Part shown: piece after piece, positions 5,261-28,600 of the stretch
Position numbering within the stretch: the first letter of the stretch is position 1
Layout: each line of letters opens with the position of its first letter
Source: Octopus sinensis
Lineage: Eukaryota
Assembly (NCBI RefSeq): GCF_006345805.1
Contig: NW_021831939.1
Location: 1 to 33,983, forward strand
DNA length: 33,983 bases
Reading direction: 5' to 3'
Translations under genes and position numbers: made by a program
Notes under the pieces: generated by a model
Seen by the model: only the letters and a program-made list of their open reading frames with translations
Database searches by the model: none
Told to the model about the DNA's origin: nothing

Positions 5261-5391
5261 TTTAAAATCTTCTAATTCTGGTCTTAATTATTTTGGTTTT
5301 AATTCACAATTAATTATTTTATTTATTCCATTTAGGTTATTTTCTCTACAGATAGTAGATGTAATCACACCAACAGGGTTAAATTACACTA

Positions 5392-6472
5392 CAGTACGAC
5401 CCCGGTTTGGGGCAGACCCCATGGGTGGGGCACCCTCGGGTTTTGGGGCACCCCCGCTTTTAGGGGCAGTTTTTTGAAAACAGTAAATTTTTCATTCTAT
5501 TATTTATTTTTGATGACCCCGGTTTGGGGCACTTATTTAATTTATTTAATTACAAAATGTTAGTTTATTTATTAATTATTAATTAATACTATTATTTCAC
5601 GTGTTTATTTTGACTTTAGTATGGTTCGTAAAAAGAATTCAAAGATTAATTATGAAACAAAAATTAAAATCGCTAAAGATATAAAACATGGTCAATTTTC
5701 AGAAAGAGATCTTGCTAAAAAGTATAAAACGAGCAAAGGTATCTTTTTTAACTAATTATTAATTACAGGTACTATTACAGGTATTAAAACGAGCAAAGGT
5801 ATCTTTTTTAACTAATTATTAATTACAGGTCTTATATTTGAAAAAGAACAGCTTTCTGATTTGAATTTGAATAATGTCAATCTTAGACAAGTCATTACAG
5901 TTGTCGGGGAGGCATGGAAAATGATGTCAGAGACAACGATAATTAATTGCTGGCAGAAATAAATGAAAACAGATCAAAAATTTCGGATAATGTACAGTTG
6001 GACGAAGAATTAATAGATGACGTGATTTCAGATGTTATTTCAATGGATTCGACAGATATTATGAGGACAAAATTACTTATGATGGATATGAATCTAAAAA
6101 ATCATCAATTAAAGAAATCATAAACATCGTGAATTCTCTAGAAGAATATTTTTCAGTACATGTCCACAATTTTGAAATCTACTACGAATTTAGAAAAAAC
6201 CTATCAGGAGAACTGAAAAAAAACCATTCGGTGAGAAATTACTGATTACTTTTAATAGTATTTTTTGTTGGATTTATTAAAATTTTTAAATTTTATTAAG
6301 AAAGGACTATGTTAGAATTTTATTAATATTAATATTTTAATTTATAGTCTAAAATGCAATAAAAATCTATTGAGGAGAAAATAAAAGCAAAAATCTTTAC
6401 CCTCGCATTTTGGGGCACCCCCGCTTTTTGGGGACTATGATAAAAATGCTGCCCCAAACCGGGGTCGTACTG
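5392..6472 (+). mobile_element. Internally deleted Tigger/pogo (Tc1-mariner superfamily) element
   Basis: Perfect 24-bp TIRs CAGTACGACCCCGGTTTGGGGCAG with TA on both sides (5390-91, 6473-74). HTH-like N-terminus MVRKKNSKINYETKIKIAKDIKHGQFSERDLAKKYKTSKG from 5620 and C-terminal remnant AWKMMSETTIINCWQK; catalytic core missing. Confidence 0.92.
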
Positions 6473-6699
6473 TAGTAAGTTCTCCTAAGAGACGAAAACG
6501 CAAAATTTTTGATAAACTCTGGAAATGTCCGAATGTTTTATAGAAAAAGTTTTAATTTCAAGCAAAAAACTTCCTGCCACCAAGAGAAATATTTATTTAG
6601 TTTGGGTTATTTCTATTATAGAGTGTCTATTTTTATTTTTACGTGTTTACTATATACCAAAAAATATTTTATTAGTAACAAATCAGTTTAGTTGTTAAT

Positions 6700-8781
6700 T
6701 CATCCTAGCTTTTGATATTTCAGTTGTCGACTAATCAAATTTAAAAACAAGATAAGTAATCCTTGCGGGCAGACAGTAATGCAAAATATGTATTCCAGAG
6801 TTTGAGAAGAATCGAACCGAACAAAAAATACTAAAATCCAACACAATCCTGTCAATAATGAATTTCATCTTTACTACCTGATAAGAAAAATGCAGAAAAC
6901 AAAACAATATTCTTTAAACAATTCATTTTAGAACTTGCATTTTCTTCAATTTTAAGTTTGTAGAACAAAATAATAAACAGAACCATGTTTATCAGCAAAA
7001 TTGCTGCTGAAGGAATAAAAAGACTCAAGTAAAATGCCAACCCAGTCAAAAAACAACTTAAAAATAAACTTTTTGCTAAAAATACCTCTCATTTGGGTTA
7101 TATGAGTTTCGATTTGCTAGAAAAACCGTCAAGACAATAAATAAAGGTACTCCTGAAATAAAAATTAAATAAAACCCCAATTGCAGATAAAAGATTTGAG
7201 AATCAAATTAGAAGTTTCGCGTTTCACAATTTTAACAAATTTAAGAAAGTGAAAATAAGTTTCAGTTAACATCCACATAAACTGTGACAACAATCCATAA
7301 TGTAATACAGCACCAAAAACTGTACATTGATTTTGGGTTTTGGTGTGAACAAAATACATTCCTACTATAAAATCAAGGTCCACGATTAAAATTGAAATTT
7401 CTAAGTTTAATAAAATTAATTGAAATTTTGATTTTAGAAGAATTCTAAAAATATATTGAATATTTTACTGATATTCTAGGAAAAATATTATAATCGAGAT
7501 AATAATTGAAATGATGGAGGATATCAGTCCAATTAATGTAATTTGTGAGATTAATGATATTTTGTTTCCGTCAATTTTATACTTTTCCGGGTTCTATGTA
7601 TATTATTATTAATGGTATTTTAAAATACAAATATAACTGCGAAACTTGACAGATGGTTAAAACTGCACAAAATTTTTTTTTCCATTTCGAAAATAATCGT
7701 CTTTCCGCCAATTGTATCCCAACTTGTATCATTCGCGTTGTAAAAAGCACACTCATTTTGAAAAACTAAATATTTTCAAAGTGATAACTGGAATGATTTG
7801 TGACGATTGGGAAACTTATACTTATATTTTTGATAAAAATTGTCGATGAAATGGAGATGATATCAGAGTGTAAAGTTTGTTTTTTTCTGATGGGGAAGAT
7901 ATCGTCATTTTTCCATTTTATGATACGAACTAAATTGTGTTTTTTATTGCAAACTATTTTTAGAATTTGATTTATCAAAATTTAGAAATATTTTGACATT
8001 ATTTGAAGAATTGGTTTTGTCGTATATTGTTTCTGTGAATTTATCGGCATGGATATTTTTGTCGACAATTATTACATCTTGGATAATCAAACTTCGGTTT
8101 AATGGTTGAACAGTTGGTTTTTCAAAATGGATCTTATTCTAATCGGATTTAAGCTGTAATATCCAACTTTGATTTATTCCTTGACACCGTCATAATTTCT
8201 GAAATAAGCTCATTAATCTTGACAATTTCCTATATAAAAAATTCTATAAAACTTTTTTATCCTTTTTTCCTGGCGTGTTAAATATAAAATATACTTTTGT
8301 TTAGTTTGTTTATACCGTCTGATTTAGGCCGCTTGGCTAAATTTTAGTCAATAATTTATTGGGAAATTTACAATTATGAAATTTATTGGGAAACTTGAAT
8401 TTTTAATTGAATATTTATTATTTCCATGAAAACGGTTTATAATTCTACTAACTTTTTAATTTGTTGCTTGTTAATAAATTTGAACTTCCAGTATAATTTA
8501 TAATGCTATTAATTTCGGTTGTCATTTTTATATATGTAACTGAGCTGAAATCACTTTAAAATCAAATTTAGAAACAGACTGTTTATTTTTATTCTTTTTT
8601 CTGAATGTTTTTGAGAGATCATTCACAACTTGAACTAAAGTCATAAATATTTACATTTTTTCTTTATTTTAAGTTTATGGTGGTCGGTTTTTTGTTGAAA
8701 GGTGTCTAAATATTGATAGTACATTAAACCCGAGTCACTTAAACATGAAGTAATAATAAATAAATTAAGCAGTAGATTCAT
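6700..8781 (-). CDS. Adhesion GPCR (signal peptide, GAIN/GPS, 7TM), full-length copy; possibly pseudogenised in its 5' exons
   Basis: Start MNLLLNLFIITSCLSD; GPS ECAFYNANDTSWDTIGG...LCSFNHLSSFAVIF; TM3 CTVFGAVLHYGLLSQFMWMLTET; TM7 YIFCITVCPQGLLILFLNL; TGA at 6702-6700. Versus copy 2 it has 1-nt losses near 8123 and 8380 and a lost splice acceptor near 8425 (real or assembly error). Confidence 0.88.
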
Positions 8782-8879
8782 TTTGCAACGACAATATATT
8801 TTTTAATAAATATATGTGTGATTCGGGCGATATGAATAATTAGGATAGAAATTCCATAAAATTAGTGATAATAAATTTA

Positions 8880-10146
8880 TTATAAATTAACGTTTTTAGT
8901 TACTAATAACTAACTAATCTGTATAATTCTCCTCCTTTTTGAACCGTTGCACTGGATCTGCGTATTCTCATCCTTTAACACTTCATATGACACATGAGAC
9001 ACATCTTCCGGCAAATCTGGTGGATCTGTTGTTTCTCTAGCCAATTTTAGGAGGTGGTTGGTGGCCCTCGAAACTTGTTCCTCATGTTTTTCAATTTCCA
9101 CTCCATGTTTATGTTCAACAAGCATGGTCTCCAATGTCTTTTTAATCGTCAGCGATTGTATATACGATCTAGTGGAAGCATCCAACTTCAGTCTTTCCAT
9201 ATAAGACTTATAGAATTTAGAAACTATCCCGTCCCATGTGAGGACAATGGGATTATCGTTACCTTCGCACCGTGGATTTGAGATAATTCTCCAGCAAGAA
9301 GATCATATTTATGTAGTTTTTCTACTTCCACTTGCTTTAACATGGCGTGGGAAGTAATTCCGACTTCAATTAGAGTGATTTCGTTTTTCGTTTTATCAAG
9401 GACAAAGATATCTGGTCTATTGTTTTTTACATGAACATCTGTCTGCAAGGTGGTGTCCACTCTTATCTCTACTTTATGATTTGAGCTAACCGACTGGACT
9501 GTGTGTGACTTTAACCTTTTGGTTTTCTTGATTCCATATTGGCGGCAGAGATGCAAATAGATGCATCTTATAACTTCATTATGTCTTCTGGTATAATCAC
9601 TGTTCAGCATTTTGCTACATCTTGTAGCCATGTGATCAACAGATTTTTTAGCTTGATTACAATGATTGCACATTTCTCCGTTATCGTTGAAAAATATATT
9701 TTGATCCTGAATAATACAATACACTGCTTCTGATATCGGACTGTTGTTTCCATTCACTAGCCATTCCGTAGACATATTGATGTCGACATTCTGATCCTCA
9801 CAACATTTGAAAAGCACGGAATGCAACATCTTCGATTTAATAATCTTCATTAGATTTTTTGTTGATTCTCCTTGATTATGTTTATATTCAATTCTGAAGG
9901 ATCTTCAATATTGTATTTGAAGGTAAGAAATCTTGCGATAGTGGCCAGATGTGTTTTCTTTATTTTCAAGACCCGCAAGATTCCAGACTTTCTGAGACAC
10001 ATTGTAGACTTTCTTTCAAGATCAGTCAAAAATTGGTATAACATGCATTCACTTTTATGGACAATTGAATTAAGTCCTCTTCCAAATTTCTTCATTAATG
10101 AGTATCTTGTTTTCGTCTAATAATAGTGTTATTTCTTCATTTATCA
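8880..10146 (-). mobile_element. 5'-truncated non-LTR retrotransposon with restriction-like endonuclease (R4/Dong/NeSL-like), frameshifted
   Basis: GRGLNSI, CCHC finger CNHCNQAKKSVDHMATRC, YTRRHNEV, and PD-(D/E)xK RLE motif NRPDIFVLDK..LIEVGIT..EKLHKYDLLA. Split over three ORFs. Confidence 0.9.
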
Positions 10147-10370
10147 CAACGGTTCTCACCCTGGGTCGAAAAATGGGTTAGAAATGGGCTGGCTCGCAGG
10201 ATTGAGAGACAACGAAGGATGCAAAAACGGCCATTTTGTCAAAATTGATATAAAATATCAAAATTAAATGTTCCATTGTCAATTTGATGAAAAGAGTGTC
10301 AAAATTGAACACCGCATTGTCAAAATCGATATAGAAATGTCAAAATTGAACTGAACTGGTATAGTCAAAA
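10147..10370. mobile_element. Probable hAT terminus with TGTCAAAATTGA subterminal repeats (also at 19421-19650)
   Basis: CAACGGTTCTCACCC resembles the hAT end CAGCGGTTCTCAACC at 33825. About 7 copies of (T)GTCAAAATTGA follow. It abuts the truncated 5' end of the retroelement. Confidence 0.5.
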
Positions 10371-12389
10371 GGATGAGAAATACAAATATTAATTCTTAGT
10401 TAAAATCTACAATATAAAACGAGCAAATAGAAAGAACTATGGGATTAAATTGCATTCAAATATATTTTAAACGTGTTTATTTTAATTTTTGTGACATCAT
10501 CGTCTCAGGCCGTTCATGTAGGCAGGATCGAACCTTTCAGAAGGATCTCCCTCGCTTGAATCGGGGATCACGAGGATAATAATAATTAACTGGCTTACCC
10601 GTGTTTGGTCTTTAAATAAATAAATAAAAATTTTAATTTTTGTATGTATTGATTTTTTTTAATTGGTCGTAAAATTTTTATATACCAAAAATGGGAAATT
10701 TGCGATGATTTATTATATGTACATACTTTTCAATTTTTGTTAAACAACCAAAAATGCAAAACCTCAATTGCTCGTCGAATTCTATATCTCGTAAAAATTG
10801 GGTCGGTTTCATAATATAGCAAGTCTTAGAGGTTTTACTATACATTTTGATTAATCGAAAATATCCGATCAACAAGTTTTTATCAAGTTTCGGGAACTTT
10901 AACTTTTTGATTGTTTTTGTAGATAAATTTTTAGTTTTGAATTGTTCCATAATTGACTCAACACTCACTAAAATTAGCTGTTTTTCCGCAAATGTTCAAT
11001 TTAAACAAGAAGGAAAATTTATTGACAATTATTTGGCATGATAATAAGTTGTTGTCGTCCTTATAACGCAATATTTGCATTTTTTGATAGTTTTCTTGTA
11101 TATCATTCAGTCAATCACAACCGGGCATGGTAAAACATAGTTTTACTGTTGTCATTTTCAAATTTTCACTAAAATTGGAAATTTTTTTAAAATTTGCAAA
11201 TTTAACGGAGTCTAGTGTTCATGACTTAATAAGATTATATTTTGAATTACAATAAACGTTTTTAGGCACCTTATAATGAAAAAGTGATGGTGCTGATAAA
11301 TGAGTCTTGCTTAAAAAGGATCCGAAACAACAACCACTTAGTTCATATTTTGTTTTTATAAAAACTTAAACTATTTAAAATTGATTGCTGTATTAATTTA
11401 TTCCTTTCGGTTTGAATCATTCCTTAGCTTTTTAACTGCAATCTTTTGTTAACCATCACGAATCTGATCTTCACTTTAGATTTTAGGCAAAAAATAAAAA
11501 TTACACCCCTTAAATAGAAAAAAGTTAAAAAATTACTTTATAACTGACAAACAAATGGGAATGTTACCTACAATGTAATCTATTACAGAAAAGTAAAATG
11601 TTGATGTGAAAATTTTGTTTACAAATTTTTATTGGCTTTGCTATTCGCGAGGCTAGCCGAGCGTCTCATGAGACTATTAGGTAATTTATAACTTGCTTGT
11701 TTGCATTTGCGTGTTTTAAAAAAAATTCTTGTTTATCACATTTAATAGTTTTATTCGAACAAATTAAGAAACTCACACTTTTTATTGTTTTCGCACACAT
11801 AAAACATAATGGAAAGCCACTTGACACTAATATAATTATTAATCATATTATAAATCAATTATATCCATTATTATCTTAAATCAAATTAAAAAAAGAACAG
11901 CAAAATAATTAGCACAAATGCGGTTATTCGTAATTAATAAACGAAATTCATTAACGAGAGAGAGCTCACTGTGCGTGTGAAACCACAAAAACATAAAATA
12001 GATATTGAATTAATGACATTATTTTTGTAGATTACTCACCTTTTTGGCATAAATCAGATTTTTGAGAATAAACTGAAATTTTAGATAAACTAAATTTTTA
12101 CGTATTGATGCGTTTTGAGTTTTTTTGATAGCCAGAAAATACACGACCGTTATACTAAAATATCTTAAAACAGAAGCCGAATAACCAACCTGATCTTTGA
12201 TTAAACTAAACATTGTTTGTCACGTGCCATTTAACAAACATCAAATTTGATTGATGGCAATCATGCCTAAAATAATCTATCGATTCAGTCACAAAATCTA
12301 AACAAAACCGTGAAAGAAAATAAGCAAAAAAGCATTTAAATCCAGAAAAATAATTAACTTGGCATTATTTGGATTAGATGACGTATATG

Positions 12390-13056
12390 TTAAAGATGTT
12401 TCTGGTGTTTCGGGTTGTGGCCACGTTTCTTGTCAACAAACACAAATTCATCAACACGACTGCTGTCATGCTCCACCAAATAATCTTCCGTATCACTGCC
12501 AGAGTACACAAAATTCGACGAAGAATTAGAAGACCCGGAATTGACAGGATTAGACGTAGGGGCATTACAAATCAACGAAGGGTCAGGAACTACTTTTTGA
12601 CGACAAAAAACTTTCCGGATTCCCTCCAAACGAGCATCTTTGAGTTCCGCATTTATCTCGACAGTTCCTGATTTTAGCATTTCGGCTGAAATTTAGTAAA
12701 ATAATCAACTTAGAGAATTTTCAGCTTTAAGTTTTTCTCTGAAGGTTGCTATTTTGCAATCAAACTTGAGTACCATTCCATTCAAAAAATAAATGTAGTC
12801 ACGTGCTTTTTGAAGGATTTTGGCACGTGGAATCTTAGATTGAGTCGGATTAAGAATTTTACTCGTTCTCTGGATGAGGGAATGATATCTTTCAAGTCTT
12901 GAAAACAATTTTTATATTTTTTCTGCGCTTTCTCTCAAGGGCATTGTGAATAGCACGACGAGACTGAAAGTTTATATATTGAATGATTTCATCATTTTTA
13001 TTGACATCATCGGTGGACCTTCCTGAATTCAGAGAATGTAAATGATTGAGTATCAT
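12390..13056 (-). CDS. MAX: Max-like bHLH-ZIP, copy 1; frameshifted as assembled (T5 vs T6 near 12909)
   Basis: RRAIHNALERKRRKNIK..LKDIIP..PRAKILQKARDYI matches the Max bHLH (HNALERKRR). Two small introns. Start codon uncertain. Confidence 0.75.
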
Positions 13057-13532
13057 ACAACTATAAGATGATTTCAAGTTTTAAAGTAAATAATTATCAA
13101 GGATCGATTAAAGCATGCAAACACGCATATACCTACGTTTGCTTGTTATGAAATTTCTTTTATTATTTTTTAAAACGTTTTAATAAAAATTATTCATAAA
13201 TTATAATTACTATTAATCAAAAATTAATTTTACAGGATTTGGTTTTAAATCAAAAAGTTTTAATAAATATTTAATTGCAGCAGAGGATAAGATGGAATGG
13301 CAATTCCCAAGCAAGTAATCCACAAATAATCAATTTCATCAGCAGTTGCCAGATATTAATGATTTTGTCTTAGTAAATAAATTCTTTAAATTTGAATTCA
13401 ACAAAAACTAAAAATGGCTACATCATTAAAATTGACGAATCCAGAATTACACAAACATTGTAATTGTCTAAAACAAAAATAAACATATGGTTTATTTAAA
13501 TGTATAGAAAATGTAATCAAAAAATTTTTACA

Positions 13533-15533
13533 TCATTTTCCCACCCTGCCTTTCACTTTGCGTTTACGGTAATCTTTTTTCTTCAAAATCTTGTCCTTTT
13601 TGGGCACTGCGTTTAACATCTCGTCAAACTAAAACATTAATAAAAATCGCAAACTTCCTCAGCGGTTTTGGTCATGTCCTGGAAATCACTTTCTAATGAA
13701 TCACTGCAATCGTCGCTCAATGAAAAATCGGAAGAATCCGCCTCGACCTTCTGCTCTCCAACGAGCATATCAAAATCACTATCTTCCACAGCTTCGGTTT
13801 TAATATCCGTTTTAACACAATAAGAACACCCTCCCGACGAGTCTACTCCAATCATGCGAAAAAAACTATAAAAATAATCATTTTTGTTTCACTGGTGTAA
13901 ATATCGTTCATCCAAAGGAATCGATGATTGATGACTATTTATAAACTGAACACTGTTCACAGGTAAGGCACGGATGCCTACACAATGACGAATTTTCTTC
14001 TGTGACATTATAACGCGACCTTCCTCTTCTACAAAAATATTTGACAAAAAACTCATTGGACGAGGCTTTTTGAAAACAAAACGGTCAAGAAATCTAATTG
14101 AACTGAAATCTTGTAATGGATGTCCTTGATAGGAAATAGATTCCCGCTATTAAATATAAAAAAAAGGAATACTTCGGTCAATGTTGTCGCAAAATATGAA
14201 ATTGTGGGGTGAACGTGCGAAGAAAGTAGTTCCAACTCATTTCTACAAACACAGAGAAAGCCCAAAGAAGCATCAACGCCACAAAAACGTGGATTTCGTT
14301 CTGTGGGATTGAAACGGTCCTCATTCTCTGAAGTGCCAGTAGTTTCGAAAAGAATCACGTGTATCTTTGATGTTATTTCAGAAATCATGATCAAAGATGC
14401 TGCCACAAAGGCAGGATTGTGATGTTGAAGACAAACTTGAAGCAAACGTTTAATAAATGCCTAAATATTGTTAAAATTAATAAAATAACCAAAATCCTAT
14501 TCATATCCTTGTCACCAGCCAACGCCTTATATAGCAAAGTAAGAAACATTGCAGGCTTTGAACAGTCAAATAGACGCACATCAGCAAGACGAGTGTAAAG
14601 CGCAGAAAAAAAGCGATCAGTCACAGCTCTAAATTATAAAACCACAAATGTTCACTCAATCGATATTGTAGATATGACATGAAGAATTTGAAGAACTCTT
14701 ATAGAAGCAGAGAAAGAAAGAGAGTGAGAAAGCAAGTAGAGAGTGTCAATATTTTCATCAAACAGTGAATAATGTTCTCAATAATAAACAAATATAAACT
14801 TACTCTCTGCATAAGGAATAGCTCGATATATTGCATCAAGGAGTACAGACATTGTCTTTGAATGTACAGTGTCATTTGGAATGAGAGTTTTGAAGTAAGA
14901 AAGGTATATTCCAATCAACAACCCTGCCAGACTAGATCCTGCATCGTCAGACGTAAAGATAAACTGAGACAAGCAACAAATAGCATAAAATCTAATAAAT
15001 TCAATAAAATATTTACTGAGTTCGACTCGAAACATTTGGGCGGAACAGCACCATTTCTAACTGCTTTCCAATTACTTGATTACAATGAGGCATTCTCCGA
15101 ACCAATGATTGAATATAAAAGAGAGCAGTCGATGCCAAATCCTTATTCTGATCCCCCAATTTATTAACCAACAACTCGATGGGTTTCTTGCAAAATTAAA
15201 GAAAATAAAAACATGATTTTGTAATGAGCGACAAATGGCCAAACGAAATGTAAATTGAATGGATTTTTTCCTGATTGAGGGTATACTGTCTTCCATACTA
15301 GTCTTGAGAAGGTCACATAATTTGGTCAGATACAATATGAGGCGGTCCTCAAACCATAAACACGTCAAATCAATTACAGATAGTTCATGTTTAAATGATT
15401 TAACAGCCTAATTAAATTTATTTTTAAATACTGTTACTTGATCAATGCTGATTAATTTCTTTCTCGGAAGTAAATATTTTGAAAAAAGTTCAACCAAACC
15501 TTCCAAGGCATGCACAGATTCTCCGAGAATCAC
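13533..15533 (-). CDS. CEBPZ: CEBPZ/Noc1/Mak21 3' portion lacking its own N-terminus; 3' partner of the junction chimera
   Basis: VNKLGDQNKDLAS, FRPNVSSRTQFYAICCLSQ, DRFFSALY, HVHPTISYFA, HPLQDFSSIRFLDRFVFKKP. Away from the junction the only indel versus the full copy is intronic (~14160). Confidence 0.9.
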
Positions 15534-17077
15534 TTTAAGAAAGTGAAAATAAGTTTCAGTTAACATCCACATAAACTGTGACAACAATCCATAATGTAAT
15601 ACAACACCAAAAACTGTACATTGATTTTGGGTTTTGGTGTGAATAAAATACATTCCTACTATAAAATCAAGGTCCACGATTAAAATTGAAATTTCTAAGT
15701 TTAATAAAATTAATTGAAATTTTGATTTTAGAAGAATTCTAAAAATATATTGAATATTTTACTGATATTCTAGAAAAAAATTATAATCGAGATAATAATT
15801 GAAATGATGGAGGATATCAGTCCAATTAATGTAATTTGTGAGATTAATGATATTTTCTTTCCGTTAATTTTATACTTTTCCGGGTTCTATGTATATTATT
15901 ATTAATGGTATTTTCAAATACAAATATAACTGCGAAACTTGACAGATGGTTAAAACTGCACAAAATTTTTTTTTCCATTTCGAAAATAATCGTCTTTCCG
16001 CCAATTGTATCCCAACTTGTATCATTCGCGTTGTAAAAAGCACATTCATTTTGAAAAACTAAATATTTTCAAAGTGATAACTGGAATGATTTGTGACGAT
16101 TGGGAAACTTATACTTATTTTTTTGATAAAAATTGTCGATGAAATGGAGATGATATCAGAGTGTAAAGTTTGTTTTTTTCTGATGGGGAAGATATCGTCA
16201 TTTTTCCATTTTATGATACGAACTAAATTGTGTTTTTTATTGCAAACTATTTTTAGAATTTGATTTATCAAAATTTAGAAATATTTTGACATTATTTGAA
16301 GAATTGGTTTTGTCGTATATTGTTTCTGTGAATTTATCGGCATGGATATTTTTGTCGACAATTATTACATCTTGGATAATCAAACTTCGGTTTAATGGTT
16401 GAACAGTTGGTTTTTCCAAAATGGATCTTATTCTAATCGGATTTAAGCTGTAATATCCAACTTTGATTTATTCCTTGACACCGTCATAATTTCTGAGATA
16501 AGCTCATTAATCTTGACAATTTCCTATATAAAAAATTCTATAAAACTTTTTTATCCTTTTTTCCTAGCGTATTAAATATAAAATATACTTTTGTTTAGTT
16601 TGTTTATACCGTCTGATTTAGGCCGCTTGGCTAAATTTTAGTCAATAATTTATTGGGAAATTTACAATTATGAATATTTATTGGGAAACTTGAATTTTTA
16701 ATTGAATATTTATTTCTTCCTATTGAAAACGGTTTATAATTCTACTAACTTTTTAATTTGTTGCTTGTTAATAAACTTGAACTTCCAGTATAATTTATAA
16801 TGCTATTAATTTCGGTTGTCATTTTTATATATGTAACTGAGCTGAAATCACTTTAAAATCAAATTTAGAAAAGACTGCTTATTTTTATTCTTTTTTCTGA
16901 ATGTTTTTGAGAGATCATTCACAACTTGAACTAAAGTCATAAATATTTACATTTTTTCTTTATTTTAAGTTTATGGTGGTCGGTTTTTTGTTGAAAGGTG
17001 TCTAAATATTGATAGTACATTAAACCCGAGTCACTTAAACATGAAGTAATAATAAATAAATTAAGCAGTAGATTCAT
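15534..17077 (-). CDS. Adhesion GPCR 5' portion (signal peptide, GAIN/GPS, TM1-3), copy 2; 5' partner of the chimera
   Basis: ATG at 17077. Exons trace in frame through the GPS motif. An A7 run at 15774-15780 is one base shorter than copy 1, giving a TAG just after TM1 as assembled. Confidence 0.85.
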
Positions 17078-17175
17078 TTTGCAACGACAATATATTTTTT
17101 AATAAATATATGTGTGATTCGGGCGATATGAATAATTAGGATAGAAATTCCATAAAATTAGTGATAATAAATTTA

Positions 17176-19420
17176 TTATAAATTAACGTTTTTAGTTACT
17201 AATAACTAACTAATCTGTATAATTCTCCTCCTTTTTGAACCGTTGCACTGGATCTGCGTATTCTCATCCTTTAACACTTCATATGACACATGAGACACAT
17301 CTTCCAGCAAATCTGGTGGATCTGTTGTTTCTCTAGCCAATTTTAGGAGGTGGTTGGTGGCCCTCGAAACTTGTTCCTCATGTTTTTCAATTTCCACTCC
17401 ATGTTTATGTTCAAAAAGCATGCTCCAATGTCTTTTTAATCGTCAGCGATTGTATATACGATCTAGTGGAAGCATCCAACTTCAGTCTTTCCATATAAGA
17501 CTTATAGAATTTAGAAACTATTCCGTCCCATGTGAGGACAATGGGGATTATCGTTACCTTCGCACCGTGGATTTGAGATAATTCTCCAGCAAGAAGATCA
17601 TATTTATGTAGTTTTTCTACTTCCACTTGCTTTAACATGGCGTGAGAAGTAATTCCGACTTCTATTAGAGTGATTTCGTTTTTCGTTTTATCAAGGACAA
17701 AGATATCTGGTCTATTGTTTTTTACATGAACATCTGTCTGCAAGGTGGTGTCCACTCTTATCTCCATTTTATGATTTGAGCTAACCGACTGGACTGTGTG
17801 TGACTTTAACCTTTTGGTTTTCCTGATTTCATATTGGCGGCAGAGATGCAAATGGATGCATCTTATAACTTCATTATGTCTTCTGGTATAATCACTGTTC
17901 AGCATTCTGCTACATCTTGTAGCCATGTGATCAACAGATTTTTAGCTTGATTACAATGATTGCACATTCCTCCGTTATCGTTGAAAAATATATTTCGATC
18001 CTGAATAATACAATACATTGCTTCTGATCTCGGACTGTTGTTTCCATTCACTAGCCATTCCGTAGACATATTGATGTCAACATTCTGATCCTCACAACAT
18101 TTGAAAAGTACGGAATGCAACATCTTCGATTTAATAATCTTCATTGGATTCTTTTGTTGATTCTCCTTGATTATGTTTATATTCAATTCTGAAGGATCTT
18201 CAATATTGTATTTGAAGGTAAGAAATCTTGCGATAGTGGCCATATGTGTTTTCTTTATTTTCAAGACCCGCAAGATTCCAGACTTTCTGAGACACATTGT
18301 AGACTTTCTTTCAAGATCAGTCAAAAATTGGTATAAAATGCATTCACTTTTATGGACAATTGAATTAAGTCTTCAGCCTTCTTAGCTGCAGATTTGGCCT
18401 CCAGGGCACATGAAGTTAAGTGAGAAGCAGAAAAGGTGTCGCAGCAGGTTGCGTCCCAAACGAGGCCTTTTCCGCCTTCGAAGGGGAAAAGGGTCATCCC
18501 GTCAGGACGTTTCCCGTCGCCGCGGTCAAGGCCCGGTGGCTCGAGGACCGAAGGAAATCCCGCCGAGTCGAGGGCCCTCCGTATGATGTCGTTCATAGCA
18601 GAGTGCCTCGGAAAACGTCCGGCACTCCTCTTGCACGATAAAGGGTGCAGACCGAAAGGGTCAACAGTGCAGCCACAGCGGCACGTGTGCGGGACACATT
18701 GCCTTAGTCCGAGTCGCAGAGAGACTCCCATCCTTACCGCTTCATCGTCAAGGAGAGTGCCAGATGGGGCATTCGGGAATGCACAAAGCCAAGCTCCGCT
18801 AGCCGGGTATGCTGCCGACAGAAGGCAAGCGCGGCGGTGCTGGTTGGACGACTCGAGCAGCAGATTGAAAGTTTGCTTGCATCTAATTCGATCCCAGGCT
18901 CGTTGAGACATTCGATCTTCCGGAAAGTCAAGGCCTTGTTCTCTCCAGACTTCGCTGAAATGAGCAACATTTGTGTCCAAGGAAAATTCAGAAAAGGAGC
19001 GTAGAATTTGTGCCCTGGAGGCCAAATCTGCAGCTAAGAAGGCTGAAGATTTAAAGCTTTTAAAATATTCTGCCCTCTCGGAGAAGTTTTCCGTGGTGCC
19101 GATCGCGGCTGAGACGTCGGGTGCTCTCGGTCCAAAAACTGAAAAGTTCCTTCGCAAGCTCGGAGCCAAAATCTCAATGCGCACCCATGATCCTCGGGAG
19201 GCGAACTGGCTAATGCAACGGCTCTCGATTGCCATTATCCGGGGAAACAGTTTGGCAATCCGCCAAGCTACATATCCACCATAAACATAATTCTATCTTT
19301 TCATTGATTATTGTTATTTATTTGTAAGTAAAAATAAAAATTGAATTAAGTCCTCTTCCAAATTCCTTCATTAATGAGTATCTTGTTCTCGTCTAATAAT
19401 AGTGTTATTTCTTCATCTAT
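17176..19420 (-). mobile_element. Second copy of the R4/Dong/NeSL-like retroelement fragment, interrupted by a CRE-like insertion
   Basis: Same protein motifs as 8880-10146 (ORFs 17206-18324); resumes at 19339. Confidence 0.9.
18372..19338 (+). mobile_element. CRE-like non-LTR retrotransposon 3' fragment with inverted 5' part and 14-bp TSD
   Basis: TSD AATTGAATTAAGTC at 18358-18371 and 19339-19352, single in copy 1 (~10062-10075). 18372-19008 encodes SGAWL..LRLG..CRCG..HPLSC..RH..RPDGMTL..WDAT on minus; 19009-19284 encodes ..PIAAETSGALG..QRLSIAIIRGN on plus, followed by an A-rich tail. Confidence 0.92.
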
Positions 19421-20226
19421 CACAACGGTTCTCACCCTGGGTCGAAAAATGGGTTAGAAATGGGCTGGCTCGCAGGATTGAAAGACAACGAAGGGTGCAA
19501 AAAGGGCCAATTTTGTCAAAATTGATATAAAAAATATCAAAATTAAATGTTCCATTGTCAAATTTGATGAAAAGAGTGTCAAAATTGAACACCGCATTGT
19601 CAAAATCGATATAAAAATGTCAAAATTGAACTGAACTGGTATAGTCAAAAGGATGAAGAGAGTACAAATATTAATTATAGTTAAAATCTACAATATAAAA
19701 CGAGCAAATAGAAAAAACTCTGGGATTAAATTGCATTCAAATATATTTTAAACGTGTTTATTTTAATTTTTGTGACATCATCGTCTCAGGCCGTTCATGT
19801 GGGCAGGATCGAACCTTTCAGAAGGATCTCCCTCGCTTGAATCGGGGAAATTTGCGATGATTTATTATACGTATATACTTTTCAATTTTTGTTAAACAAC
19901 CAAAAATGCAAAACCTCAATTGCTCGTCGAATTCTATATCTCGTAAAAATTGGGTCGGTTTCATAATATAGCAAGTCTTAGAGGTTTTGCTATACATTTT
20001 GATTAAATCGAAAATATCCGATCAACAAGTTTTTATCAAGTTGCGGGAACTTTAACTTTTTGATTGTTTTTGTAGATAAATTTTTAGTTTTGAATTGTTC
20101 CATAATTGACTCAACACTCACTAAAATTAACTGTTTTCCCGCAAATGTTCAATTTAAACAAGAAGGAAAATTTATTGACAATTATTTGGCATGATAATAA
20201 GTTGTTGTCGTCCTTATAACGCAATA

Positions 20227-22040
20227 CAGTCGGACCTCGGTTTGAACCACTTGATGGCTCATAAACCGAGGTTGTATCATAAACCGAGGTTCGCTAATAA
20301 TCCTAATTAACAGTACTTTAAGTAAAAAATAGTTCACAAGAAACAGATAGAAACAGTTCATAAGTTATACTTTTTGGAAATAATGCGTAATCTTTTTTCC
20401 AAAACGATTTTTATCCCGTAAATTAATCATTATTTTTTTCCTTAGGGCGTAGAAATCATTTGATAATTCTGGAGAAAGTTTGCATATATTTTCCTCCATA
20501 TTATTAATAAGAGTCAGTGGATCTATGATTTCTGTTGATTTAGGCCCATTATAAAAATTTATTTTGCTTTCAAGCAATTCTTCGACAAAGACTTCGTTCA
20601 CCATTTCTGTCACGTCCGTATGAATCTTCGACTTGATATTTATTGTTTCCTCCCATCTACACTCAAAAATTTTTTTCCAACAATTTTGAATTTGATTTGA
20701 AGTTACATTGGCCCAGGCTTCAGAAATTAGTTGCATCACATTCCGTAAATTGAGACTTTTGATTGCTTCCAAAAAATTGCTTCTATTTTCACAAATGCAT
20801 ACGAATTCGATAAGTAAATTACTGTAATTTGTCTTCAGTGCTTTAATTATGCCCATATCAAATGGCTGAACTAACGATGTAGTGTTTTAGGTAAATATAA
20901 AAATTCAATGTTTGAATAATCGGATAGTCTATGAGAACTAGCATTATCCAACAACATGAATATTTTTCGGTTTTCAGAAAGCATTCTGGTATTTAATTAA
21001 AAAACCCAGCTTTTAAAAATTTCAGTTGTCATCCACGAATTTTTAGAAAAAGAGTACATGACGTTAAAAACATCAGGATTGAATTGTTTTAAGCACCGAG
21101 GGTTTCGATATTTGCAGATAATTAAAGGCTTCAGTTTCTCTCCAAGATAACTGCAGCATAGAAGCAAACTAACCCTTTCCTTGTACTGCTTAAAACCAAA
21201 CAAATTTTCACCACATTGTACAAATGACTTAGTTGGTGTATTTTTGAAATAAAGTGCAGTTTCGTCGCAATTAAATACATTTTCTTTACCATAATAAACA
21301 ACTTTTGTATCTAATTCTTGGAAAAAATGAAGGAGCATGGATGTATCTGCGGAACCCTTTTCACCACACAATGTTTTGTACTGTAAATTATGTAGTTTCT
21401 TGAATCTTTGAAGCACCATTAGACAATTTGAAATTATTCAATGATAATTTTGAAGCGACCATCGACCCAATTTTCTTAATGGTCGGTCCAATTAAGGGCA
21501 TTTTTTAAGTCTCAATTTGTGAAAAATTTCCAAAACTTTAAGATCGAGATTTTTAAGCTTTTCAGAATCACTAGTTTGCTCGGATAAATCAGAATAAATA
21601 GTTCCATTATCAAGAAAAGGAAAATCTTTTTTATACGTGAAATTGTAGCCCTGCTAACTTTGAAAATTTCCGCTATTCTGCGCTCTGAAAGGTGGTTCCG
21701 TTTAATATTGGGCTATTTCGAGTTTTTTTCGTGATCAATTTTCATTTTAAGCATCTAGAAAACATAGAACAGTGGAAAATACTTCAACAAAGATAACAAC
21801 GTGACAAGAAAAAAATTCTTTAAAATAAACGATAAAATATATAAAATAAAAATAATATATTACAAAATATTAAGTTTATAGCAATTTTTAGATGGCTCAT
21901 AACGAGGTCTATTTTTAATTGATTTTTACAAACCCCTTAGGAAAAAAGCAGTTTCAAAAAACGTGGCTCAAAAATAGAGTTTGTATCATAAAGCGAGTAT
22001 GGATCATACCCGAGGTCTGGCTCATAACGAGGTCCGATTG
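20227..22040 (-). mobile_element. Tigger/pogo element with frameshifted transposase
   Basis: Imperfect 23-bp TIRs (CAGTCGGACCTCGGTTTGAACCA / CAATCGGACCTCGTTATGAGCCA), TA TSD, empty TA site at 11072-11073 in copy 1. Motifs LCGEKGS, FNCDETALYF, KERVSLLLC, SWMT, MGIIKALK. Confidence 0.95.
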
Positions 22041-22636
22041 TATTTGCATTTTTTGATAGTTTTCTTGTATATCATTCAGTCGAATCACAACCGGGCATGG
22101 TAAAACATAGTTTTGCTGTTGTCATTTTCAAATTTTCACTAAAATTGGAAATTTTTTTTAAAATTTGCAAATTTAACGGAGTCTAGTGTTCATGACTTAA
22201 TAAGATTATATTTTGAATTACAATAAACGTTTTTAGGCACCTTATAATGAAAAAGTGATGATGCTGATAAATGAGTCTTGCTTAAAAAGGATCCGAAACA
22301 ACAACCACTTAGTTCATATTTTGTTTTTATAAAAACTTAAACTATTTAAAATTGATTGCTGTATTAATTTATTCCTTTCGGTTTGAATCATTCCTTAGCT
22401 TTTTAACTGCAATCTTTTGTTAACCATCACGAATCTGATCTTTACTTTAGGGTTTTCTTTGGCACAATAAATTTTTTTCTACCTCGACCATCTTTAGCAT
22501 TTCCCGAGAAGTGATTCAAAATTTCTCTTCTCTAAAACTAACTAAGAAAAACAATCTTTTTCTTATATATAACAGAAAGCAATTCACTTCTACGCCGATA
22601 AAACACACATGCCATGAAAAGTAGAGAAATCACATA

Positions 22637-24124
22637 CAGTAAAACCTCTGGTGCTCGCCATTTTCGGGACCGAAGAAAAAATGGCGAGGAATAGAATTTG
22701 GCGAGCAATGGAAATAATCAATAAATTTTTTGACTTTGAAATTTTGAAAACATCTCGATTTTCGATACTTTCCGATCATATTCATGATTAATAAAATCAT
22801 CTTTATCCACCGAATCCAAGATTTTCAAGATATTTACCATTTGATCATAATTATCAATTTCAACAGTTGGTCTTTCGAGTTGATTTTCACATTCGATCCA
22901 TTTTGAATGTCCGAAAAATTTGTAATTGTTTTGGTCTTTACTTTTTCCAGGCAAAATATGTCAAAAGAAGACCGTCTTTTAAGGTTAATTTTTTATGATT
23001 TTCTTTTTAAGGTTAATTTTTTATGAGCTTCCAGTGGATTTTCTCCATTTTCAACTTTTTCTAACATAAACTCAAATTTAAGTTTATTAAAATGTCCTTT
23101 GAAGGATCTAATGATTCCTTGATCCATTGGTTGTAGAATTGTTGTAGTCTTCGAAGGTAGGTAAACTTCAATTGACTTTAAATCAGCGTAAAGTTTATGG
23201 GATGGGCATCGATCCACAGCTAAAAGAATTTTTCGTTTTTTTAGATGCCTATCCCATGTAAAAAGCCATTTGTTAAAAATTTTATTTGTCATCCATGCTT
23301 TTGGTGAATGACAGTAAGGATTTTATGTCCATATCGAACCTTCTGACAAACACTTTTTGAAGGGATAGATTTGTAAAAAATCCCAGTTTCATCAGCGTTA
23401 TAAATGTTTTCAGCATTATATTGTTGAATCTTTGCAGAGATCAAAGAAGTAAATGCATCAATTTCTTGCTTCTGATCAACTGCAGTAGATCCTGATTCTC
23501 CATGTAAAGTACTCAATGTTAGGTTGTTCCATATCTTGAACTCACTTAGCCATCCATCGCTGGCTTTAAACTCTTTAATTCCATAAATATTTGCAATGTT
23601 CTTTGCTTTCAACAAAATTGAATTATCGTCCAGAAACCCCCCTCTAAGCTCAATGCATTACATCTAAGTTAATATTTCGGTGTCAATAACAGAATAAGTT
23701 GAGTTAGATAATCTCTTCTTATTGGAGAAAATAGGATCAGTAGACATTATTTTCTCTTTTCCAAATCTTAAATCGTTCAAAGCCCTTCGAGATATTTTTT
23801 TCTTCAAAACAAAAGAAAAAATGTAAGCTATAAGGTCCATCGTGAGACTTTTGTTCTCCTCCATGCACGCAATAATGCGACGTTTTTCATTAAAAGACAA
23901 TCCTGTGCACTTACGCATGTTGAATTTAGCGTGGTTGAAATATTTTATATAAAAAATAGTTTAACCAAAAAAAATATTTTTAAAAATTAATGGCGAGATT
24001 TAGAAAATGGCGAGCAATAGAATATTTATCAAAATTTACTAGAAATTTTTAATTTTTTGAAAAATATGTGGCGAGCAATAGAGGTGGCGAGTAACAGAGG
24101 TGGCGAGCACCAGAGGTTTTACTG
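22637..24124 (-). mobile_element. Tigger/pogo element (second family), deleted and frameshifted transposase
   Basis: Perfect 24-bp TIRs CAGTAAAACCTCTGGTGCTCGCCA with TA flanks. Motifs FKASDGWL, LHGESGS, YNADETGIFYK, QPMDQGII. Confidence 0.95.
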
Positions 24125-25043
24125 TAGTTAATTATTTTAGGCAAAAAATAAAAATTACACCCTTTAAATAGAAAAAAGTTAAAAAATTACTTTATAACTG
24201 ACAAACAAATGGGAATGTTACCTACAATGTAATCTATTACAGAAAAGTAAAATGTTGGTGTGAAAATTTTGTTTACAAATTTTTATTGGCTTTGCTATTC
24301 GCGAGGCTAGCCGAGCGTCTCATGAGAATATTAGGTAATTTATAACTTGCTTGTTTGCATTTGCGTTTTTTAACAAAAAAATTCTTGTTTATCACATTTA
24401 ATAGTTTTATTCGAACAAATTAAGAAACTCACACTTTTTATTGTTTGCGCACACATAAAACATAATGGAAAGCCACTTGACACTAATATAATTATTAATC
24501 ATATTAAAATCAATTATATCCATTATTATCTTAAATCAAATTAAAAAAAGAACAGCAAAATAATTAGCACAAATGCGGTTATTCGTAATTAATAAACGAA
24601 ATTCATTAACGAGAGAGAGCTCACTGTGCGTGTGAAACCACAAAAACATAAAATAGATATTGAATTAATGACATTATTTTGTACATTACTCACCTTTTTG
24701 GAATAAATCAGATTTTTGAGAATAAACTGAAATTTTAGATAAACTAAATTTTACGTATTGATGCGTTTTGAGTTTTTTTGATAGCCAGAAAATACACGAC
24801 CGTTATACTAAAATATCTTAAAACAGAAGCCGAATAACCAACCTGATCTTTGATTAAACTAAACATTGTTTTGCCACGTGCCATTTAACAAACATCAAAT
24901 TTGATTGATGGCAATCATGCCTAAAATAATCTATCGATTCAGTCACAAAATCTAAACAAAACCGTGAAGGAAAATAAGCAAAAAAGCATTTAAATCCAGA
25001 AAAATAATTAACTTGGCATTATTTGGATTAGATGACGTATATG

Positions 25044-25711
25044 TTAAAAATGTTTCGGGTGTTTCGGGTTGTGGCCACGTTTCTTGTCAACAAACACAAA
25101 TTCATCAACACGACTGCTGTCATGCTCCACCAAATAATCTTCCGTATCACTGCCAGAGTACACAAAATTCGACGAAGAATTAGAAGACCCGGAATTGACA
25201 GGATTAGACGTAGGGGCATTACAAATCAACGAAGGGTCAGGAACTACTTTTTGACGACAAAAAACTTTCCGGATTCCCTCCAAACGAGCATCTTTGAGTT
25301 CCGCATTTATCTCGACAGTTCCTGATTTTAGCATTTCGGCTGAAATTTAGTAAAATAATCAACTTAGAGAATTTTCAGCTTTAAGTTTTTCTCTGAAGGT
25401 TGCTATTTTGCAATCAAACTTGAGTACCATTCCATTCAAAAAATAAATGTAGTCACGTGCTTTTTGAAGGATTTTGGCACGTGGAATCTTAGATTGAGTC
25501 GGATTAAGAATTTTACTCGTTCTCTGGATGAGGGAATGATATCTTTCAAGTCTTGAAAACAATTTTTTATATTTTTTCTGCGCTTTCTCTCAAGGGCATT
25601 GTGAATAGCACGACGAGACTGAAAGTTTATATATTGAATGATTTCATCATTTTTATTGACATCATCGGTGGACCTTCCTGAATTCAGAGAATGTAAATGA
25701 TTAAGTATCAT
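25044..25711 (-). CDS. MAX: Max-like bHLH-ZIP transcription factor, copy 2 (intact frame)
   Basis: QSRRAIHNALERKRRKNIKNCFQDLKDIIPSSRER / IPRAKILQKARDYIYFL joined by a 29-nt intron, then a second small intron before the C-terminal exon. Start codon uncertain. Confidence 0.82.
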
Positions 25712-26188
25712 ACAACTATAAGATGATTTCAAGTTTTAAAATAAATAATTATCAAGGGATCGATTAAAGCATGCAAACACGCATATACCTACGTTTGCTT
25801 GTTATGAAATTTCTTTTATTATTTTTTAAAACGTTTTAATAAAAATTATTCATAAATTATAATTACTATTAATCAAAAATTAATTTTACAGGATTTGGTT
25901 TTAAATCAAAAAGTTTTAATAAATATTTAATTGCAGCAGAGGATAAGATGGAATGGCAATTCCCAAGCAAGTAATCCACAAATAATCAATTTCATCAGCA
26001 GTTGCCAGATATTAATGATTTTGTCTTAGTAAATAAATTCTTCAAATTTGAATTCAACAAAAACTAAAAATGGCTACATCATTAAAATTGACGAATCCAG
26101 AATTACACAAACATTGTAATTGTCTAAAACAAAAATAAACATATGGTTTATTTAAATGTATAGAAAATGTAATCAAAAGATTTTTACA

Positions 26189-28600
26189 TCATTTCCCCAC
26201 CCTGCCTTTCACTTTGCGTTTACGGTAATCTTTTTTCTTAAAAATCTTGTCCTTTTTAGGCACTGCGTTTAACATCTCGTCAAACTAAAACATTAATAAA
26301 AATCGCAAACTTCCTCAGCGGTTTTGGTCATGTCCTGGAAATCACTTTCTAATGAATCACTGCAATCGTCGCTCAATGAAAAATCGGAAGAATCTGCCTC
26401 GACCTTCTGCTCTCCAACGAGCATATCAAAATCACTATCTTCCACAGCTTCGGTTTTAATATCCGTTTTAACACAATAAGAACACCCTCCCGACGAGTCT
26501 ACTCCAATCATGCGAAAAAAACTATAAAAATAATCATTTTTGTTTCACTGGTGTAAATATCGTTCATCCAAAGGAATCGATGATTGATGACTATTTATAA
26601 ACTGAACACTGTTCACAGGTAAGGCACGGATGCCTACACAATGACGAATTTTCTTCTGTGACATTATAACGCGACCTTCCTCTTCTACAAAAATATTTGA
26701 CAAAAAACTCATTGGACGAGGCTTTTTGAAAACAAAACGGTCAAGAAATCTAATTGAACTGAAATCTTGTAATGGATGTCCTTGATAGGAAATAGATTCC
26801 CGCTATTAAATATAAAAAAAGGAATACTTCGGTCAATGTTGTCGCAAAATATGAAATTGTGGGGTGAACGTGCGAAGAAAGTAGTTCCAACTCATTTCTA
26901 CAAACACAGAGAAAGCCCAAAGAAGCATCAACGCCACAAAAACGTGGATTTCGTTCTGTGGGATTGAAACGGTCCTCATTCTCTGAAGTGCCAGTAGTTT
27001 CGAAAAGAATCACGTGTATCTTTGATGTTATTTCAGAAATCATGATCAAAGATGCCGCCACAAAGGCAGGATTGTGATGTTGAAGACAAACTTGAAGCAA
27101 ACGTTTAATAAATGCCTAAATATTGTTAAAATTAATAAAATAACCAAAATCCTATTCATATCCTTGTCACCAGCCAACGCCTTATATAGCAAAGTAAGAA
27201 ACATTGCAGGCTTTGAACAGTCAAATAGACGCACATCAGCAAGACGAGTGTAAAGCGCAGAAAAAAAGCGATCAGTCACAGCTCTAAATTATAAAACCAC
27301 AAATGTTCACTCAATCGATATTGTAGATATGACATGAAGAATTTGAAGAACTCTTATAGAAGCAGAGAAAGAAAGAGAGTGAGAAAGCAAGTAGAGAGTG
27401 TCAATATTTTCATCAAACAGTGAATAATGTTCTCAATAATAAACAAATATAAACTTACTCTCTGCATAAGGAATAGCTCGATATATTGCATCAAGGAGTA
27501 CAGACATTGTCTTTGAATGTACAGTGTCATTTGGAATGAGAGTTTTGAAGTAAGAAAGGTATATTCCAATCAACAACCCTGCCAGACTAGATCCTGCATC
27601 GTCAGACGTAAAGATAAACTGTGACAAGCAACAAATAGCATAAAATCTAATAAATTCAATAAAATATTTACTGAGTTCGACTCGAAACATTTGGGCGGAA
27701 CAACACCATTTCTAACTGCTTTCCAATGACTTGATTACAATGAGGCATTCTCCGAACCAATGATTGAATATAAAAGAGAGCAGTCGATGCCAAATCCTTA
27801 TTCTGATCCCCCAATTTATTAACCAACAACTCGATGGGTTTCTTGCAAAATTAAAGAAAATAAAAACATGATTTTGTAATGAGCGACAAATGGCCAAACG
27901 AAATGTAAATTGAATGGATTTTTTCCTGATTGAGGGTATACTGTCTTCCATACTAGTCTTGAGAAGGTCACATAATTTCGCCAGATACAATATGAGGCGG
28001 TCCTCAAACCATAGGCACGTCAAATCAATTACAGATAGTTCATGTTTAAATGATTTAACAGCCTAATTAAATTTATTTTTAAATGCTGTTACTTGATCAA
28101 TGCTGATTAATTTCTTTCTCGGAAGTAAATATTTCGAAAAAAGTTCAACCAAACCTTCCAAGGCATGCACAGATTCTCTTCGAGAATGACGGCTTGAAAA
28201 CTCAAAAAGCACATTTATTGATTTCAAATGAAAAAGCGGCAATTCTTTAGTCAAAATAACGTGGGCGGAAATTTTATCTTTAAAAGCACCGTCTTTAATA
28301 ATTTTTCTCATCCAATTCAAACGAGAATCTTTTTTCGAATTTTGATCTGCAGTTAAAATTTTAGTTTCTCAACCTTTCTCAAATAAATCGACAATTTGAT
28401 TATAAACTAATTCAGCCTGTTTGACTTTACTTATTTTTTTATCTATGACAATTTTCTCCTTTAATTTAGTGACAATTTCTATGCAAGTGTCCATACAAGA
28501 TAATTCATCTTCGTCAATGTTTTCTTTAGGTTCTTCTTTTGAAAAATTTGCACGTTTTTTGCTGCAATTTATATAATGTTGAATACATGGAAAAAGACAT
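26189..28600 (-). CDS. CEBPZ: CCAAT/enhancer-binding protein zeta (Noc1/Mak21, CBF domain), full length
   Basis: ATG at 28600 (MSFSI/KKRANF..), WMRKIIKDGAFKDKISA, VNKLGD, DRFFSALY, FLDRFVFKKP, acidic then basic C-terminus, TGA at 26191-26189. Many mini-introns. Confidence 0.92.

Follow-up and report, generated by a model that had tools for sequence, protein, structure and literature searches.

Can a retrotransposon that carries a restriction-like endonuclease (RLE) produce the kind of 5′-inverted insertion that is attributed to twin priming in human L1, a model reportedly put forward by Ostertag and Kazazian in 2001? This question is raised by a 981 bp insert in a 33,983 nt stretch of the Octopus sinensis assembly GCF_006345805.1 (contig NW_021831939.1, positions 1 to 33,983 of the forward strand; hereafter, the window). 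The insert is located in the second copy of a near-duplicated region and is missing from the first copy. A first-pass annotation of the window had read it as a twin-primed copy of a CRE-like RLE element. With moderate confidence, we interpret it as a single 5′-inverted insertion of a multicopy RLE-type (CRE-like) non-LTR retrotransposon (LTR, long terminal repeat), likely generated by twin priming.

Architecture of the insert

An identical 14-mer is present at both ends of the insert (18358–18371 and 19339–19352) and cannot be extended on either side. It occurs uninterrupted once more, at 10063, and this occurrence is the empty site in the other copy of the region, in agreement with the first-pass annotation. 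Comparison of the flank sequences gave a range of 10–14 bp for the target-site duplication, because the first AA may be tail and the last TC may belong to the element. The 14 bp duplication annotated before therefore holds for the identity of the flanking 14-mers, and 14 bp is the maximum for the duplication itself.

Between these repeats lie an inverted part of 638 nt and a sense part of 330 nt (19009–19338), the latter ending in the A-rich tail that had been annotated. The first 39 bases of the inverted part are the exact reverse complement of the first 39 bases of the sense part, which means that 39 element bases are present in both orientations. The overlap reads 41 nt, as given in the first-pass annotation, if the last two flank bases are counted; these 2 of the 41 bases are not part of the true overlap. 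The longest of the 295 inverted-repeat pairs in the window is found at the same place (18365–18410 and 19009–19054; 46 nt, 98%).

Ten of the 19 listed sequencing runs contain part of 17900–19800, and four of them (X1, X2, X3, and X9) were compared with the window as contigs at 85% likeness, with 32 of 939 pieces, selected through a filter, being examined. In X2 and X3, loose contig ends showed that the upstream sequence of the family runs on from 19009. Therefore, base 19009 is common to both halves, giving a 1 nt overlap at the joint, and the inverted part ends at this base, one position beyond the 19008 proposed previously. The features of the insert and of its target are as follows, with the strand in parentheses.

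18358–18371 (+): left target-site duplication, at most 14 bp; its 3′ end is the putative second primer, and its last two bases also match the element
18372–19009 (−): inverted 5′ part, 638 nt, with a 213 aa open frame covering a linker, a CCHC zinc knuckle, and the first part of the restriction-like endonuclease; putative second cDNA; matches 120 of the 120 listed homologs
18372–18410 (−): 39 nt overlap, inverted copy; exact reverse complement of 19009–19047
18453–18683 (−): C-x-C-x9-H-x3-C knuckle, RH, E, RPD, and downstream D of the RLE motif (residues 110–186 of P0001); residues with little or no variation among 52 aligned proteins; by-eye comparison of the pattern with that of PMC12857005
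19009–19009 (no strand): inversion joint, one shared base (T) without extended homology; placed by the X2 and X3 loose ends, with similarity at chance level
19009–19047 (+): 39 nt overlap, sense copy, from sequence comparison
19048–19054 (+): putative internal priming site, seven bases pairing with the 3′ end of the left duplication (six Watson–Crick pairs and one G:U), from pairing counts
19009–19284 (+): sense 3′ part of the open reading frame (ORF), 91 aa and a TAA stop; putative first cDNA; matches 114 of the 120 listed homologs, downstream of the inverted part in all 114
19285–19338 (+): 3′ untranslated region, 54 nt, AT-rich, ending in a short A-rich tail
19339–19352 (+): right target-site duplication, from the 14-mer match; the first AA may be tail
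10063–10076 (+): target site in its empty form, within the other copy of the region, from the 14-mer match; this form is also found in runs X1, X3, and X9
17411–18357 (−): second, unrelated retroelement remnant hosting the insertion, frameshifted, with CCHC and RPD-like motifs by eye; placed by its frames and by loose ends at 18371

This organization supports one retrotransposition event with a 5′ inversion. The identical flanks, together with the open frames, suggest that the insertion may be recent. The first-pass annotation had considered that the full-length consensus might already contain the inversion. In fact, the family is un-inverted: in one contig of X3, 18411 and 19009 are connected, on opposite strands and with 41 shared letters, and all 114 homologs matched by both parts are colinear, with the inverted part preceding the sense part.

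Identity of the element and its family

Both parts of the insert are free of stop codons and, placed in element order, they form a single open frame of 290 codons. At E ≤ 1e-10, 356 longer proteins were found as relatives, of which the best 120 were examined. These are 47–63% identical to the insert, and most carry the reverse transcriptase (RT) domain PF00078. The relatives are 885–985 aa in length, which would give an element of some 3 kb. The zinc knuckle and the RH, E, PD, and downstream D residues are conserved throughout the 52 aligned proteins, as listed above. Profiles of the relatives had R2 proteins as their best PDB matches, over the RT, a domain that is not contained in the insert itself. 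Judged by its sequence, the insert is the 3′ third of an RLE-type non-LTR element. A Pfam scan revealed no family in either half of the insert or in either frame of the host remnant (4 of the 11 scanned proteins). In a structure model of the inverted half only, the nuclease part was mostly below 50 in the predicted local distance difference test (pLDDT), and two fold searches returned no clear match; the nearest clusters in the ESM Atlas were unnamed and eukaryotic.

Membership of the CRE clade is indicated indirectly, and we refer to the element as CRE-like. A relative named at its source as 'Retrotransposable element SLACS protein' shares 54% and 49% identity with the inverted and sense halves, respectively, and 50% with the RT of a relative. 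We also take the RT motifs of the relatives to look like those of CRE. By eye, the residue order of the endonuclease motif follows the SLACS/CRE pattern (PMC12857005; this and the other cited papers are represented by the accessible parts of their text). The motif spacers are 9, 8, and 15, compared with 7–8, 9–10, and 12–14 in SLACS and CRE1/2, each being off by one residue, and RHS stands in place of RHD/N. A pattern search with the last spacer set to 12–14 found no match.

The known members of the clade (CRE1/2, SLACS, CZAR, Cnl1, MoTeR, and FoTeR) resemble the present family in their single ORF, in the order of RT followed by CCHC and RLE, which is seen in the relatives of the insert, and in the duplication of the target (PMC3636483). 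Target duplication is stated in that source for all known CRE and R4 elements, and it is therefore not specific to CRE. Many members, but not all, target spliced-leader genes or telomere repeats, whereas the insert sits in neither of these; its target is AT-rich and close to where another retroelement remnant ends. Such a target does not exclude CRE membership because Cnl1, which generates duplications of 1–12 bp and truncated copies, also inserts into ordinary genes (10.1101/2021.08.11.455996).

In run X1, the summed depth was approximately 5,800–23,000 over the insert and 55–200 in the least repeated bins of the right flank, values that give no copy number and suggest a multicopy family. The family is apparently abundant, and the 39-mer of the overlap is present once in its un-inverted form. 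Among the 40 variant rows examined (154 in all), 19 are located in the ORF of the insert, and 11 of these 19 are synonymous, which would be in keeping with a family under selection.

Many of the relatives (P0056, P0063, P0076, P0114, P0210, and others) also carry a ubiquitin carboxyl-terminal hydrolase domain (PF00443) or a PHD finger (PF00628), an accessory load besides the RT that is unusual for RLE elements. The closest named relatives (P0004, P0006, P0009, P0013, P0016, P0189, P0191, P0192, and P0194) are annotated as Octopus sinensis, on scaffolds of 25–670 kb; our assumption is that they may derive from a parasite in that assembly.

Routes to the inverted arrangement

The outer junction coincides exactly with the end of the duplication, and position 18369 carries the G of the target instead of the A of the element, which is the expectation for priming by target DNA. 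At 19048–19054, the implied RNA can pair over 7 nt with the 3′ end of the left flank (TTAAGTC), with a G:U pair at the third position. This confirms the pairing described in the first-pass annotation, which had opposed TTAAGTC to GAUUUAA at the internal priming point with six matches and one G:U. A wobble-allowed run of 7 nt is reached by 2 of the 849 sites in the implied RNA, one of them being the observed site, and the result is the same for three possible nick positions. When Watson–Crick matches were counted, 4/5, 5/6, 6/7, 6/8, 7/10, and 9/14 were reached by 18, 5, 2, 4, 4, and 2 of the 849 sites, respectively; with the terminal base paired, 6/7 matches were reached at one site and 9/14 likewise at one. 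These counts support a primer pairing better than chance if one mismatch is allowed. At the inner joint, in contrast, 1 nt is shared, and the similarity is at chance level over 3–14 nt (455–644 of 879 sites are as good; 455 over 7 nt).

The steps of twin priming can be deduced from this end product. The endonuclease would nick the bottom strand, and the freed TT end would prime reverse transcription in the A-rich tail. A second nick, 10–14 nt away on the top strand, would free an overhang whose 3′ end pairs with the RNA at 19048–19054 and primes a second cDNA, extending 638 nt toward the 5′ end of the element. The first RT would overrun the second priming point by 39 nt, which on one RNA would need strand displacement; the RT of R2 is capable of strand displacement. 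The two cDNA ends would be joined with at most 1 nt of homology, and gap filling would leave the duplication. If both primers were extended on one RNA, the second strand would have been nicked and its end primed before the first enzyme had copied approximately 285 nt. The first-pass annotation had proposed a 14 nt staggered cut made before cDNA synthesis was finished. A stagger is compatible with the insert, with 14 nt as the upper bound of 10–14 nt, and the early cut follows if one RNA served both primers but not otherwise. For avian R2, the second nick is described as the work of a second protein, after cDNA synthesis has freed the RNA-bound domains (PMC13486585). This scheme is compatible with the steps above, and the accessible text of that source does not call for complete synthesis.

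The 39 nt overlap between the halves is unlike most L1 inversions, in which overlaps form a minority class. Otherwise, human 5′-inverted L1 copies are alike in having an inverted 5′ part, a sense 3′ part with a tail, and a duplication of 10–20 bp (PMC4245944). In these L1 copies, more microhomology is found at the 5′ junction than at the inversion junction, and inversion joints can lack it (PMC2912911); the window insert has the same asymmetry, with the outer joint exceeding the inner one. The two systems differ in that L1 has an N-terminal APE endonuclease and a mammalian host, whereas the element of the insert has a C-terminal zinc knuckle and RLE and a non-mammalian host. In human cells, 5′ inversions have been described with L1 only, apart from one Nimb-2_DR insert, and were linked to overhangs of 10–20 nt (PMC4245944).

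Several observations weigh against twin priming at this locus. The strict Watson–Crick run at the priming site is only 2 nt, which is reached by 130 of the 849 sites, and the low site counts given above therefore depend on a wobble or mismatch at the third base. The helix reaches only −2.9 kcal/mol (rank 2 of 849, with RNA–RNA parameters as a stand-in), and the predicted accessibility of the priming site is unremarkable, at the 41st percentile. The overlap demands an extra step, either displacement or a second RNA, and cDNA snap-back with hairpin opening yields the same sequence. A single inverted copy is known, and no contig spanning a filled junction was found among the 32 pieces, whereas those listed X1 flank contigs that extend to the site are of the empty form. 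One of these empty-form contigs has three differences, as many as the first copy of the window has there, and two of them are listed at the same places. Because the contig pieces were filtered, the gap in filled junctions proves nothing. Furthermore, a profile of the relatives fetched 61 loci from metagenome and genome contigs, of which 59 were matched by 15 query proteins; the window, included as a positive control, was found. None of the 59 related loci had the inverted layout, a weak test given that most contigs are short, distant, and without a 5′ junction. No strand-switch joint besides the canonical one was seen in the contigs of the four runs; this table is silent on the frequency of inversions because the canonical joint was missed even in the deeply covered X1.

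The same product could arise from one cDNA, without second priming on RNA. The cDNA would have run to the point now at 19009, and its 3′ end would have folded back and self-primed approximately 600 nt earlier; the hairpin would then have been nicked 39 nt into the stem, and, after fill-in, microhomology-mediated end joining would have linked this end to the overhang of the target. When followed through on the sequence, these steps would give the exact product, overlap included, and the 7 nt match could equally serve DNA end joining. Snap-back 5′ junctions, including upstream target joined to antisense transgene, are known for avian R2 proteins (PRINT), which are likewise of the RLE type (PMC11371274, PMC11331408), and hairpin remodeling of L1-made ends has been proposed to yield local inversions (10.1101/2024.12.14.628481). 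The avian R2 junctions differ in that they come from engineered, site-specific insertions in human cells and are read as DNA-primed cDNA fold-back; moreover, the second nick of R2 lies 2 bp upstream, compared with a duplication of 10–14 bp at the window insert. At this locus, however, the fold-back step would have had 1 nt of complementarity, the level expected by chance over 3–14 nt, and the nick would have had to fall in the stem and not in the 600 nt loop. Strong pairing is found instead at the outer junction, where twin priming needs it, and for this reason twin priming is favored and snap-back with hairpin opening is considered unlikely. The twin-priming reading of the first-pass annotation thus stands as the best one, although it is not the only route to this product. 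In a further route, the two target ends would have been extended on different family transcripts by two ribonucleoproteins at one site. Such dual priming would explain the overlap without displacement, in which case the overlap would be silent on nick timing, and in R2 the second nick does involve recruitment of a second protein (PMC13486585). Relative to the listed contigs, the inverted part has approximately 9 differences over 527 nt for X2 and 5 over 340 nt for X3, compared with 0 in 215 nt (X2) and 0 in 157 nt (X3) for the sense part (p ~0.05 for X2, by hand calculation). This asymmetry hints weakly at two RNAs, but uneven conservation along the element could account for it. The copies of the overlap are identical, and the breakpoints lie just 39 nt apart in an element of ~3 kb, as would be expected with one RNA and would be a coincidence with two. 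We therefore regard two RNAs as quite unlikely.

An assembly or library artifact, such as a long-read or amplification chimera, would fit the missing filled junctions, and the assembly is not clean, as frameshifts are seen in the host genes of the window and the region occurs in two copies with 96–99% identity. A chimera would nevertheless have to switch strands twice, in one case precisely where the duplication ends, and then resume in the correct flank, and the duplication, tail, and empty site are hallmarks of a genuine insertion; an artifact is accordingly judged very improbable. Scarcely credible, in our view, is an ordinary 5′-truncated copy that was rearranged later by replication template switching, or a pair of separate insertions at one site. 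The 7 nt match could guide a DNA template switch, and head-to-head pairs of different family members do exist (locus L038, with arms 56% identical). Against these, one breakpoint coincides with the end of the duplication to the base, the inverted part lacks a separate 3′ end, tail, and duplication, and the two halves continue one 290-codon frame with an exact 39 nt overlap. Two simpler routes were rejected. Plain snap-back without hairpin opening would duplicate only what the sense part already contains, but 599 of the 638 inverted bases do not occur there, and inversion between pre-existing inverted repeats does not agree with a family that has the 39-mer once.

Locus L038 (788–1608) was the sole locus among those fetched with matches on opposite strands, and it was rejected as a case of twin priming: two different members stand there head to head. 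These CRE-like 3′ fragments are 3 bases apart, and both are cut off near the same protein position (residues 843 and 845 of P0007).

Twin priming could also be a regular outcome in this animal CRE-like lineage, which we put forward as a tentative possibility, open to considerable doubt. An RLE protein with a 3′ stagger of 10–14 nt would nick the second strand before cDNA synthesis had gone beyond a few hundred bases, and the overhang would be passed to a second RT on the same RNA. If so, twin priming would depend on overhang length and nick timing and would require neither L1 nor APE endonucleases nor mammalian repair, and the timing of the second nick in vivo would be recorded in the natural inversion breakpoints of this family.

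Word searches of the accessible text of papers on MoTeR (10.1101/845669), FoTeR (PMC12857005), and Cnl1 (10.1101/2021.08.11.455996, PMC11343200) revealed no 5′ inversions. A literature search covering titles and the beginnings of abstracts, with few subscription papers or Repbase Reports, likewise found no report that CRE or other natural RLE elements undergo twin priming or 5′ inversion. In the accessible parts of three further papers, twin priming is mentioned for L1 only (PMC6895275) or is confined to the reference lists (PMC2718515, PMC5389967). The novelty suggested by the first-pass annotation is upheld within this scope for CRE and other natural RLE elements, and may be narrowed by the antisense snap-back junctions known for avian R2 (PMC11371274). 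Apparently, the insert represents a known mechanism in a clade for which no report of it was found. The timing of the second nick and the joining of 5′ ends in RLE retrotransposons matter for R2-based gene insertion, and whether other elements share the R2 mechanism is described as an open question (PMC13486585). The occurrence of such an inversion in a natural RLE element, with a duplication of 10–14 bp, agrees with the overhang explanation and suggests that neither L1 nor a mammalian cell is required for the route; a single copy gives no rate and cannot separate twin priming from snap-back.

Setting of the locus

The remnant that hosts the insertion has its other copy at 8910–9904 on the minus strand, and its motifs, compared by eye, suggest that it may be RLE-type. 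The target site is ~10 bases from the apparent 5′ truncation of the remnant, which lies on its right. In addition to the negative Pfam scan, the remnant had no PDB match and no blastp match to the stored proteins, was unrelated to the insert by blastp, and showed no duplication of its own. The empty target (18354–18372 and 10059–10078) consists of a 4 bp inverted repeat, GGAC and GTCC, around 11 AT-rich bases. As these motifs flank the empty target, both putative nicks would lie at or near GTCC on their own strand, which is probably due to chance.

The window contains a tandem near-duplicate (7240–15533 and 15534–28190), with a CBF/Mak21 gene in pieces and four large indels between the copies, which could represent two haplotypes assembled in tandem or a true duplication. 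The host genes identified by Pfam are eukaryotic (CCDC53, mevalonate decarboxylase, and CBF/Mak21). The mevalonate decarboxylase gene (3943–5240) is fast-evolving, scores best against animals, and has candidate introns of 23–28 nt; its product is 40–44% identical to two cephalopod proteins that are themselves 83% identical to each other. Dicyemids are parasites of cephalopods. A mean intron length of 38 bp, 49% repeats, and 1.24% heterozygosity have been described for a dicyemid (PMC6736024), and a dicyemid host is plausible for this window, as are two haplotypes assembled in tandem.

Other mobile sequences are present in the window. An insert at 20227–22040, found in the second copy only, has short terminal inverted repeats beside TA and remains of a DDE_1 transposase, and we take it to be a polymorphic pogo/Tigger-like DNA transposon. 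Another insert confined to the second copy (22451–24133) has inverted repeats of 26–33 nt at 22628 and 24101 and a weak match to a Tc5 DNA-binding domain. Outside the duplicated region, at 5388–6476, lies a 1.1 kb element resembling a miniature inverted-repeat transposable element, with perfect 28 nt terminal inverted repeats and an internal 35 nt direct repeat.

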